Program-made: the position numbers and the translations under genes
Notes under the pieces: model-generated
The model's database searches: none
What the model was told of the DNA's origin: nothing
The model's input: the letters and a program-made list of their open reading frames with translations, nothing else
In this document: in pieces, positions 21,166 to 22,527 of the stretch
How the letters are laid out: each line of letters begins with the position of its first letter
How positions within the stretch are numbered: the stretch's first letter is position 1
Origin: a virus
Taxonomy: Duplodnaviria; Heunggongvirae; Uroviricota; Caudoviricetes
Direction: 5' to 3' (one strand)
IMG/VR virus record: IMGVR_UViG_3300025299_000102
Length of the DNA stretch: 64,000 bases

Positions 21166-21195
21166 TTGAAGGATTGGTCTTCTTGGAGCTATACT
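21166..21195 (+). promoter_or_regulatory. promoter TTGAAG-18-TATACT
   Basis: -10 ends 5 nt before leader-peptide ATG (very short/leaderless 5' end, or another upstream promoter is used). Confidence 0.45.
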
Positions 21196-21200
21196 GAGCC

Positions 21201-21272
21201 ATGTTCATGCTGACTACAACCACAACTACCATCACCACTTCTGTAAAGTGGCGGTCTCGTATTGTCGGTTGA
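21201..21272 (+). CDS. Thr-rich leader peptide MFMLTTTTTTITTSVKWRSRIVG (thrL-like)
   Basis: 8 Thr in 9 consecutive codons (ACT ACA ACC ACA ACT ACC ATC ACC ACT); stop 19 nt before terminator hairpin. Confidence 0.55.
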   Translation: MFMLTTTTTTITTSVKWRSRIVG

Positions 21273-21290
21273 AATCAGCTCATCCATACA

Positions 21291-21321
21291 TCGAACCCGC
21301 CTTGTGCGGGTTTTGTTTTTT
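21291..21321 (+). terminator. intrinsic terminator (attenuator) between leader peptide and ThrRS-like gene
   Basis: GAACCCGC-cttgt-GCGGGTT + TTTGTTTTTT; alternative pairing GGCGG(21250-54)/CCGCC(21297-301) and GGTTGA/TCGAACC could act as antiterminator. Confidence 0.7.
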
Positions 21322-21333
21322 CTGGAGCAAATC

Positions 21334-22527
21334 TTGAAGCACCCTTACCTTGAAGCAGCACAACGACTGAACTTATTCCATGTCGAGGAGCATTCGCCGG
21401 GCTTTGCCTGGTGGCATCCCAACGGACTTTGCCTCATTGAAGCCCTAAAGAGTCTCGTCCGCAACGCGCACGCAAAATATGGCTACGAGGAAGTAAAGAC
21501 CCCAAACATCACCGGCGTTGAACTCTTCGAGCAGTCGGGCCACCTGGCCAAGTTCCGCCAGAATATGTTTGTAGTTCCAGGGGGCGACGGAGAGCGTAGC
21601 TATGTAGTTCGCCCGATGAGCTGTCCAAACCACATCGCAGTATTCGACCACGCGCGCCGCAGCTATGCCGAGCTGCCGCTTAAGCTCTACGAATTTGGGG
21701 AAGTAGTGCGCAATGAACCTTCCGGTAGCCTGCAAGCGCTGTTCCGCATGCGAGGGTTTGTGCAAGATGACTCGCATGTATTCGCCATGGAAGGCCAGTC
21801 CATCGACGTAATTGCGGACTACATCGCCATGTCCCGGGAAATTTACCAGGCCCTGGGCTTCCCTGATGTTCGGTATCAGATTTCATTGCGGCCAGAGCAA
21901 CGCTTTGGCGACGATTTTTTGTGGGATAGGGCAGAAGAGGCTTTGCGCGAGGCATGCCGCCGAAATGGCCTGAGCTGGGATGAAGAGGAGGGCGGTGGTG
22001 CCTTCTACGGACCAAAGCTTGAGATGCACCTGACCGACAAACTTGGCCGCAGCTGGCAGATGGGAACCGTCCAGCTCGACTACGTTCTGCCGCGCAGGTT
22101 TAATCTCGAGTACCTAAGTCGCAATAACCAGGCCGAAGTTCCGGTCATCCTGCATCACGCTGTTCTTGGCTCCCTAGAGCGCTTCATTGGCGTCCTACTC
22201 GAACAGTATGGCGCCGACTTGCCGGCGCCGCTACGGCCGGTACAAGTGGCGCTCATCACTGTTCGGGAATCCGAGGACGTCTACGTCCGCGGCCTGGCTG
22301 CTGATTTGCGCCGGCAAGGTATCCGCGTAAAGACCTTCCTGGGTGACGCACGCTTGGGTGGTAAGGTGAAGTCGGCTGAGCTCGAAGTCCCTGCATTCAT
22401 TGCGGTGGTGGGTGGTAGAGAGGTGGCTGCGGACCAGGTCGCCATTCGCCATCCTGACTCAATGCCAAAAGTAGAGCGGGCCGCGTTTGTTGCGGAAGTT
22501 CTCGCCGGCTGTAATGCCTGGTCCTGA
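21334..22527 (+). CDS. thrS-like: threonyl-tRNA synthetase-like protein (class II catalytic core + anticodon-binding domain; lacks N-terminal TGS/editing domains)
   Basis: Collinear with E. coli ThrRS residues ~242-642: RPMSCPNHIAVF, EFGEVVRNEPSGSLQALFRMRGFVQDDSHVF, GAFYGPK, MGTVQLD, HHAVLGSLERFIGVLLEQY; TTG 21334 with GGAG RBS preferred (track start 21262 reads through terminator). Confidence 0.75.
   Translation: MKHPYLEAAQRLNLFHVEEHSPGFAWWHPNGLCLIEALKSLVRNAHAKYGYEEVKTPNITGVELFEQSGHLAKFRQNMFVVPGGDGERSYVVRPMSCPNHIAVFDHARRSYAELPLKLYEFGEVVRNEPSGSLQALFRMRGFVQDDSHVFAMEGQSIDVIADYIAMSREIYQALGFPDVRYQISLRPEQRFGDDFLWDRAEEALREACRRNGLSWDEEEGGGAFYGPKLEMHLTDKLGRSWQMGTVQLDYVLPRRFNLEYLSRNNQAEVPVILHHAVLGSLERFIGVLLEQYGADLPAPLRPVQVALITVRESEDVYVRGLAADLRRQGIRVKTFLGDARLGGKVKSAELEVPAFIAVVGGREVAADQVAIRHPDSMPKVERAAFVAEVLAGCNAWS

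Follow-up and report, generated by a model that had tools for sequence, protein, structure and literature searches.

Introduction

In Escherichia coli, the thrL leader of thrABC combines a leader peptide rich in consecutive Thr (and Ile) codons, the alternative hairpins 1:2, 2:3 and 3:4, and an intrinsic terminator placed before the regulated gene, and it senses charged tRNA-Thr through ribosome stalling. Here we describe a leader that shares this organization, located upstream of a gene for a threonyl-tRNA synthetase (ThrRS) in a 64-kb stretch of DNA from a virus record (IMG/VR record IMGVR_UViG_3300025299_000102). The whole 64-kb stretch is called the window, and coordinates refer to its + strand unless stated otherwise. 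The shared sensing mechanism is a prediction for the window. The two systems differ in that thrL controls threonine biosynthesis genes and not a synthetase, and in that the upstream open reading frame (uORF) of thrL is led by a Shine-Dalgarno (SD) sequence, whereas the uORF in the window is probably leaderless.

Leader peptides have also been linked to genes for aminoacyl-tRNA synthetases (aaRS). E. coli pheM-pheST likewise uses leader-peptide attenuation of an aaRS by cognate codons; it differs in sensing Phe, in controlling a chromosomal housekeeping enzyme and in being unrelated in sequence. The pheMST operon is listed among attenuation-controlled operons (PMC3831192). Closer in logic is the auxiliary trpRS1 of Streptomyces coelicolor, for which an attenuator was described (Vecchione and Sello 2010, J Bacteriol 192:3565, as cited in PMC4787780): here, too, ribosome-mediated attenuation acts on an auxiliary, second-copy aaRS, which is induced when charging of the cognate tRNA falls. 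However, trpRS1 relies on Trp codons and encodes an antibiotic-resistant paralogue, whereas the ThrRS of the window keeps the sensitive-type equivalents of Gly463 and Leu489 (PMC11252418). His-leader peptides were found upstream of hisS paralogues in Bacillus (Naville and Gautheret 2010, PMC2965389), and a leaderless 'thrL' with two Thr codons and no clear terminator was proposed for thrS of Streptomyces lividans (PMC8079986). Both are cognate-codon peptides upstream of aaRS genes that were inferred from computation or transcriptomics. The S. lividans peptide is leaderless, as predicted for the uORF of the window, but the element described here has 6-9 Thr codons, a canonical terminator and broad conservation. 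Finally, thrS and thrZ of Bacillus subtilis have T-box leaders (Putzer et al. 1992, as cited in PMC4787780). The logic is shared, because uncharged tRNA-Thr leads to antitermination and to more ThrRS, including a back-up paralogue, but the sensor is direct binding of tRNA to RNA and not a translating ribosome.

The original prediction for this locus had presented the coupling as unusual for aaRS genes. This was overstated, since leader-peptide attenuators are known on pheST, trpRS1 and hisS paralogues. As a kind, this architecture has precedents, and the mechanism is that of classical leader-peptide attenuation. An attenuator with a strong Thr run has not turned up in our literature searches, either for a ThrRS gene or for any aaRS gene of a phage.

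From the sequence comparisons and folding models reported below, we consider it highly probable that a ribosome-mediated leader-peptide transcription attenuator ties the expression of a truncated, editing-less ThrRS to the supply of charged tRNA-Thr.

A Thr-Codon Leader Precedes a Truncated ThrRS Gene

The uORF spans 21201..21272 (+) and consists of 23 codons followed by TGA (21270-72), with the predicted peptide MFMLTTTTTTITTSVKWRSRIVG. Both its coordinates and its translation, with eight Thr in nine codons, were confirmed as originally given. The regulatory codon run, designated segment 1 (21213..21239, +), comprises codons 5-13 (ACT ACA ACC ACA ACT ACC ATC ACC ACT), that is, eight Thr codons and one Ile codon. 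An 8-of-9 Thr stretch occurs a single time in all six frames of the 64 kb, at a chance expectation of approximately 2.5e-4 (binomial estimate, p(ACN) ~0.06).

An intrinsic terminator (segments 3:4) is located at 21293..21321 (+). Its 8-bp G+C-rich stem (21293-21313) is formed by pairing of GAACCCGC with GCGGGUUU. The 5' arm GAACCCGC (21293-21300) and the 3' arm GCGGGTTT (21306-21313) enclose the loop CTTGT, and the T-run TGTTTTTT reaches 21321. The terminator itself had been correctly predicted, but its placement required correction: it had been put 19 nt from the uORF stop codon with a start at 21291, and we measured 20 nt to a stem that starts at 21293. The claim that it lies directly upstream of the ThrRS-like coding region was borne out, as the T-run ends 12 nt before the TTG start codon. 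In the close family defined below, this spacing is 12-18 nt. The SD sequence of the ThrRS gene, GGAG (21324..21327, +), was read from the sequence 3 nt after the T-run. The short spacing leaves no room for a separate promoter, so that ThrRS would be expressible by read-through only.

The regulated gene (21334..22527, +) encodes a ThrRS of 397 amino acids. Its start is most likely the TTG at 21334: the Joint Genome Institute gene call predicts the same 397-amino-acid product, and homologues carry ATG at the aligned position. Two Pfam domains were detected and no others: the class II catalytic core (PF00587) and the domain for anticodon binding (PF03129). The protein scores 385.6 bits against TIGR00418 (thrS; model positions 170-545), above the equivalog cutoff of 383.65, and aligns with residues 244-610 of E. 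coli ThrRS. The protein lacks the N-terminal TGS and editing (N2) domains, and the attenuator fills the DNA directly upstream. Its truncation matches that of the crystallised catalytic fragment. Because the zinc ligands C97, H148 and H274/275 are invariant among 24 family members, the 397-amino-acid protein is very probably an active ThrRS.

We also considered an ObaO-type paralogue resistant to obafluorin and borrelidin. Such resistance is marked by Ser at the position of E. coli Gly463 and Met at that of Leu489 (PMC11252418). The equivalents in the window, Gly226 (in FYGPK) and Leu252 (in VLP), are retained and are invariant in 24 family members, and this candidate was rejected.

Upstream of the uORF, a sigma-70-type promoter is predicted at 21166..21195 (+), composed of TTGAAG (21166-71), an N18 spacer and TATACT (21190-95), with 9/12 consensus matches in a consensus scan. 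The exact TATACT is also present upstream of the uORF in nine homologous loci. In the intergenic DNA of the window it is 3.5-fold enriched (10 found, 2.9 expected), mostly 15-50 nt upstream of gene starts and in the correct orientation (sites at 3296, 8177, 19927, 21190 and 56745 on the + strand, and at 33970 and 44352 on the - strand). TATACT is probably a common -10 promoter box of this element. The nearest upstream gene (20528-21127) runs divergently on the opposite strand; the terminator thus sits in a 5' leader and ends no upstream gene.

No SD sequence was found before the uORF in the window leader. The uORF ATG lies exactly 5 nt downstream of TATACT in the window and in the homologous loci L161, L164, L168 and L171, which suggests a leaderless mRNA; together with the missing SD, this spacing makes the uORF transcript probably leaderless. 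In several homologues, TATACT is 18-34 nt from the uORF ATG, likewise without an SD. Leaderless leader peptides are common in Streptomyces (PMC8079986). A second candidate for a leaderless mRNA in the window is that of a transposase-like gene (43269-44345), whose ATG follows the TATACT at 44352 (-) by 6 nt.

The Leader Is Conserved in the Clade of Truncated ThrRS Genes

Eighteen genes of the truncated-ThrRS clade were sampled, including that of the window (43-82% protein identity, GC content 36-58%). Close relatives came from metagenome and Logan contigs; a profile search of genome contigs with the family alignment returned canonical thrS genes only (36-43% identity). A uORF with a run of 6-9 Thr codons and a hairpin are located directly upstream of the gene in 17 of the 18 loci (window, L161-L164, L166, L168, L171, L172, L174-L176, L179-L181, L081 and L005). 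The sole exception in the clade is L173, where the gene begins only 35 nt after an FKBP gene. The original prediction had proposed a thrL-like attenuator, built from a Thr leader peptide and a terminator, in control of a ThrRS homologue, and had made its standing depend on conservation of the Thr-run uORF before homologous thrS-like genes; its retention in 17/18 loci supports the proposal. In all 17 leaders the terminator-like hairpin is stable (-13.7 to -29.3 kcal/mol), and in 16 it is followed by a T-run.

Within the close family (72-82% identity), the leader peptides are MFKQTTTTTTTTTSRKWRACFVG (L161), MFKLTTTTTTTTTSRKWRACFVG (L164), MLKLATTTTTTTTSRKWRACFVG (L168, from Burkholderia ubonensis), MRFINRLTTTTTTTPRAWRVCFV (L162), MKSVFFTTTTTTTAHERGGGAFVR (L172) and MNLNLATTTATTTTALRA (L163), and those of L171 and L166 are similar. 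At greater distance we found ...GDTTTTTTTPSCRGG... in L174 (64% identity), MNFPQVINTTTTTTTTPQEVVG in the low-GC L175 (61%), MKKHFSTTTTTTTSFKPGG in L179 (55%, GC content 36%), MSFFRTTTTTTTTSPTG... in L181 (54%, on a contig of at least 846 kb), MPRHLFATTTTTPTSG... in L176 (52%), MYFSFATTTTTTTTALRP... in L180 (51%), MHIVKNTTTTTTTQIEAGLVRYCR in L081 (50%, a low-GC IMG/VR contig of 437 kb) and MKFVRISTTTTTRTGG... in L005 (43%, a metagenome-assembled genome of the Steroidobacteraceae). The first 14 leaders have 110 run codons, of which 106 are ACN (ACC 44, ACA 23, ACT 20, ACG 19) and four are non-Thr. Outside the Thr run, the leaders are unrelated in sequence between lineages. Synonymous ACN variation in an otherwise unrelated leader is the signature of selection on translated Thr codons.

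In every lineage, a copy of the terminator 3' arm that is able to compete for the 5' arm follows 1-15 nt past the last Thr codon. This segment 2 word changes together with the terminator arms between lineages. It is GGCGGG in the close family, with the 5' arm CCCGCC; the corresponding pairs are GGGGTGG and CCACCCC in L174, GAGGTGG and CCACCTC in L175, GCGGGC and GCCCGC in L176, GCTGGG and CCCAGC in L081, and ACCGGG and CCCGGT in L181.

Among the loci compared, the cassette is specific to this clade. No Thr-run small open reading frame (ORF) was present upstream of full-length thrS (136 loci), and of 19 truncated ThrRS genes from huge viral contigs that are more distantly related, most lacked it. 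The ThrRS of Sinorhizobium phage Phosso is full-length, and no Thr leader precedes its gene. We regard the comparative evidence as decisive for the predicted attenuator.

Truncated ThrRS genes as such (approximately 390-400 amino acids, no editing domain) are common on huge viral contigs (L124-L156, IMG/VR, 288-578 kb) and make up 40 of the 178 ThrRS loci fetched. In L131 (2722-2960) and L139, both from IMG/VR, the Thr run ITTETTTTTASA* forms the C-terminus of an ORF of about 62 amino acids upstream of a distant truncated ThrRS gene (41% identity). The ORF stop codon is within a hairpin that is followed by a T-run; in this possible variant, the stalled ribosome itself may mask the terminator 5' arm, with no separate antiterminator involved. 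In the uncultured 636-kb phage LR756504 (L178:1240-1500; the same sequence in L124), a truncated ThrRS gene is preceded by a small ORF with scattered Thr codons, MTTIIRNMNNNINRTRTTLG..., and then by a strong terminator. The 5' arm of this terminator and the CTTGGGCTTTC segment of the small ORF are complementary. A tRNA-like sequence immediately precedes this ThrRS gene.

Folding of the Leader RNA and Proposed Mechanism

The 150-nt leader of the window has a more stable fold than 199 of 200 dinucleotide shuffles (z = -2.8). In the minimum free energy (MFE) fold, the Thr-codon segment pairs with segment 2 (21246-21279) to form hairpin 1:2 (21209..21279, +), a predicted anti-antiterminator and possibly a pause hairpin. 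In nascent RNA without a ribosome, hairpin 1:2 has a free energy of -27.0 kcal/mol and leaves the terminator 5' arm free, so that the terminator forms. In nine close homologues, RNAalifold recovered 17 pairs of hairpin 1:2, five of them with compensatory changes. MAFFT alignments of whole leaders and of terminator segments misregister the short 5' arm owing to variable spacer and loop lengths; for this reason RNAalifold recovered the 1:2 hairpin alone, and the arms were tabulated per sequence instead.

The core of segment 2, GGCGG (21250..21254, +), copies part of the terminator 3' arm and is predicted to pair with CCGCC (21297-21301) as the antiterminator. The original prediction had proposed two such pairings. 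Both GGCGG and GGTTGA (21267-72) were found where it had placed them, with the partners CCGCC and TCGAACC (21291-97). The first pairing was recovered in the modelled stalled state, but the second was absent from it, and small helices (UCG/CGA and others) formed instead.

For these constrained folds, the ribosome was modelled as protecting the mRNA up to 11 nt past the A-site codon. With the A-site at Thr codons 8-10, GGCGG/CCGCC and the small helices reach -16.8 kcal/mol while the 3' arm is still missing. For the full RNA in the stalled state, the antiterminator has -22.2 kcal/mol versus -21.0 kcal/mol with the terminator enforced. The terminator formed when the A-site was set to the stop codon, to the final Thr codon or to Thr codon 6. 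In silico, the two structures are mutually exclusive. Masked-ribosome MFE folds gave mixed calls across homologues, and a nascent-RNA test was used instead. In the 17 leaders, 50-98% of the terminator 5' arm was paired when the ribosome stood in the middle of the run; with the ribosome at the stop codon, it was 2-34% paired in 16.

The window leader contains the components of a leader-peptide attenuator: a codon-enriched uORF, a terminator with no promoter between it and the regulated gene, an exclusive antiterminator (with a weak shuffle control) and a 1:2 hairpin. From these we infer the following course in vivo, from the start of transcription through uORF translation and stalling to the response. 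Transcription would begin at or just before the uORF ATG, from TTGAAG-N18-TATACT. When Thr-tRNA(Thr) is plentiful, the ribosome would pass the eight Thr codons, reach the TGA and cover segment 2; the terminator would then form, and transcription would end 12 nt short of the ThrRS start codon. Without a loaded ribosome, segment 1 would pair with segment 2, and the terminator would form too. When charged tRNA-Thr is scarce, the ribosome would stall in the middle of the Thr run, occupying segment 1 and leaving segment 2 free. The free GGCGG could then pair with CCGCC of the terminator 5' arm ahead of 3' arm synthesis, allowing RNA polymerase to read through and ThrRS to be produced.

Several observations weigh against this mechanism. 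The window antiterminator has no more than five G-C pairs plus small helices, and a ribosome that stalls on the first Thr codons or on the final one is predicted not to cause antitermination. Sequestration of the 5' arm in the window alone was not significant versus dinucleotide shuffles of the G-rich segment (p = 0.21), and the combined effect over nine lineages was modest (Fisher p = 1.3e-3); the G-rich composition already gives approximately 50-60% pairing of the 5' arm in the shuffles. Because this control is weak, our case is not built on thermodynamics. In several homologues, the equilibrium fold retains the terminator despite a stalled ribosome, and the switch must therefore be kinetic, as in classical attenuators. 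Lacking an SD, the uORF would depend on leaderless or otherwise SD-independent initiation for its translation. The leader scores 20.2 bits (E = 0.3) against the Rfam family Thr_leader (RF00506), below the gathering threshold of 55. One member of the clade, L005, has a hairpin without a T-run.

Alternative Explanations

The uORF could sense Thr-tRNA as proposed but act through Rho-dependent termination, or through the translation or stability of the ThrRS mRNA. L005 fits such an output: it has a Thr uORF (MKFVRISTTTTTRTGGRVAVDV; L005:2780-2900) and a GGCGG/CCGCC-type hairpin, then no T-run, and its lineage may use a Rho-dependent or translational output. The Thr run that ends inside the hairpin in L131 and L139 points in the same direction, and actinobacterial leader peptides often have no clear intrinsic terminator (PMC8079986). 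However, a canonical T-run follows the hairpin in the window and in 15 other leaders, with stems of -13.7 to -29.3 kcal/mol, which makes an output other than intrinsic termination very improbable for the window.

A promoter, a transcript of about 120 nt and a strong terminator are also the anatomy of a small RNA gene. The locus might accordingly encode an independent small RNA or a Thr-rich micropeptide unrelated to ThrRS, or the leader RNA might be the main product and act in trans; released attenuator RNAs can do so, as exemplified by rnTrpL in Sinorhizobium (PMC6614838). However, the SD of the ThrRS gene 3 nt past the T-run and its start 12-18 nt past it leave the gene without a promoter of its own and imply transcription through the terminator. 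Moreover, the cassette accompanies ThrRS genes in widely differing genomes, and about 1 Mb of fetched loci showed no copy of it in any other position. A role of the leader RNA in trans could add to attenuation but would not replace it, and we attach little weight to an independent small RNA gene.

It is similarly hard to see the leader as an untranslated RNA switch that is bound by ThrRS, like the thrS operator, or by uncharged tRNA-Thr, like a T-box, with the Thr codons as a mere pairing partner of the G-rich strand. The encoded ThrRS retains its anticodon-binding domain, the loop of the window 1:2 hairpin (CUGUA) contains UGU, a tRNA-Thr anticodon, and it is established that ThrRS genes elsewhere use both mechanisms. 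However, the loop is CGCGC, CGCGA or CGCCA in close homologues, and mimicry of the tRNA anticodon was rejected for this lack of conservation. The E. coli-type thrS operator is not matched either: the hairpin with its unconserved loop is ~60 nt upstream of the ribosome-binding site, with the terminator in between. Apart from the low Thr_leader score, neither a T-box nor another Rfam family was detected even at E ≤ 10; for the T-box this covers 20900-21600, and at gathering thresholds there was no T-box match in the whole window. Leaders that are otherwise unrelated keep an in-frame ATG, a stop codon and ACN repeats whose third positions vary freely, a pattern expected of translation and not of pairing alone. 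A ribosome-mediated attenuator remains our preferred reading over all three alternatives.

Gene Neighbourhood and Nature of the Replicon

An identical ThrRS protein is encoded on a contig of approximately 571 kb (JGI Ga0055534_1000001) that was assembled in four samples, and relatives with 78-82% identity are found on contigs of 508, 640 (two Burkholderia ubonensis isolates), 699 and 248 kb. Gene order around the B. ubonensis locus follows that of the window: 5'-3' exonuclease, DUF2828/VWA, FKBP, ThrRS and a histone-deacetylase-like gene. The leader of this species (L168:5863-5985) is on contig LPBK01000018.1 of assembly GCA_001528095.1. The two isolates carry syntenic contigs (640,048 and 640,310 bp), which suggests a discrete replicon of approximately 640 kb.

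The window encodes an rIIA-like protein (52747-55203, -), a T4-type RNA ligase 1 (9879-11105, +), PhoH-PIN (40338-41999), a head-maturation-protease-like protein (56789-57754, +; phrog_53, E = 2e-41) and a DUF2828/VWA 'RNA-binding protein' (18549-19925, +; phrog_850, E = 1e-113). Further phage-like genes are those for NAD synthetase, a topoisomerase, a DNA-ligase-like protein and an HNH endonuclease. This gene content is typical of huge phages. No capsid or terminase gene was seen within the 64 kb, and megablast of 15-24 kb of the window against phage and plasmid collections gave no match. The description of the ThrRS gene as phage-borne is thus plausible but not proven: the rIIA-like, RNA ligase, PhoH and protease-like genes speak for it, and the lack of capsid and terminase genes in the window does not. 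The replicon is a probable giant phage. Two of the contigs that carry the cassette, L005 and L181, may be bacterial chromosomes.

Intron-containing or long-arm suppressor tRNAs have been reported in huge phages. At 5855-5979 (+), a 125-nt segment of the window matches the Rfam tRNA model with 36.9 bits (gathering threshold 29) and has an insertion of ~50 nt in the variable-arm region. Its anticodon loop aligns as CUCUAAA, which gives the anticodon CUA and a possible amber suppressor. ARAGORN detected no tRNA in this segment, which did not fold better than shuffled sequences (z = -1.4). The segment could represent a suppressor tRNA of either kind, or a pseudo-tRNA.

Discussion

Huge phages carry up to 15 aaRS genes (PMC7162821), and a huge-phage survey makes no mention of attenuation. 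A conserved attenuator that reads charged tRNA-Thr would provide a testable answer to when and why huge phages express one of these enzymes. It would mark the ThrRS copy of the phage or element as a demand-driven back-up and not a constitutive replacement. ThrRS would also join the short list of synthetases under cognate-codon leader peptides, namely PheRS, the auxiliary TrpRS and HisRS paralogues. The 17 leaders can seed a model for a new RNA family, with which the many 'hypothetical' ORFs of 20-35 amino acids upstream of thrS paralogues would be correctly annotated.

The editing domain of ThrRS removes Ser-tRNA(Thr). Keeping a ThrRS without this domain off unless it is needed may therefore limit mistranslation.

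More tentatively, giant phages and phage-like megareplicons of Burkholderiales and other bacteria might sense the charging of host tRNA-Thr through a leaderless Thr uORF and deploy an editing-free ThrRS only when charging collapses. We put this forward as a possibility that is, at present, doubtful. If it is true, the triggers of such a collapse could include host shut-off, an anti-phage attack on tRNAs or aaRS, or antibiotics that target ThrRS, and the released leader RNA might act in trans as well. 'Translation-rescue on demand' would then be a regulated phage strategy, one that could extend to other phage aaRS genes.

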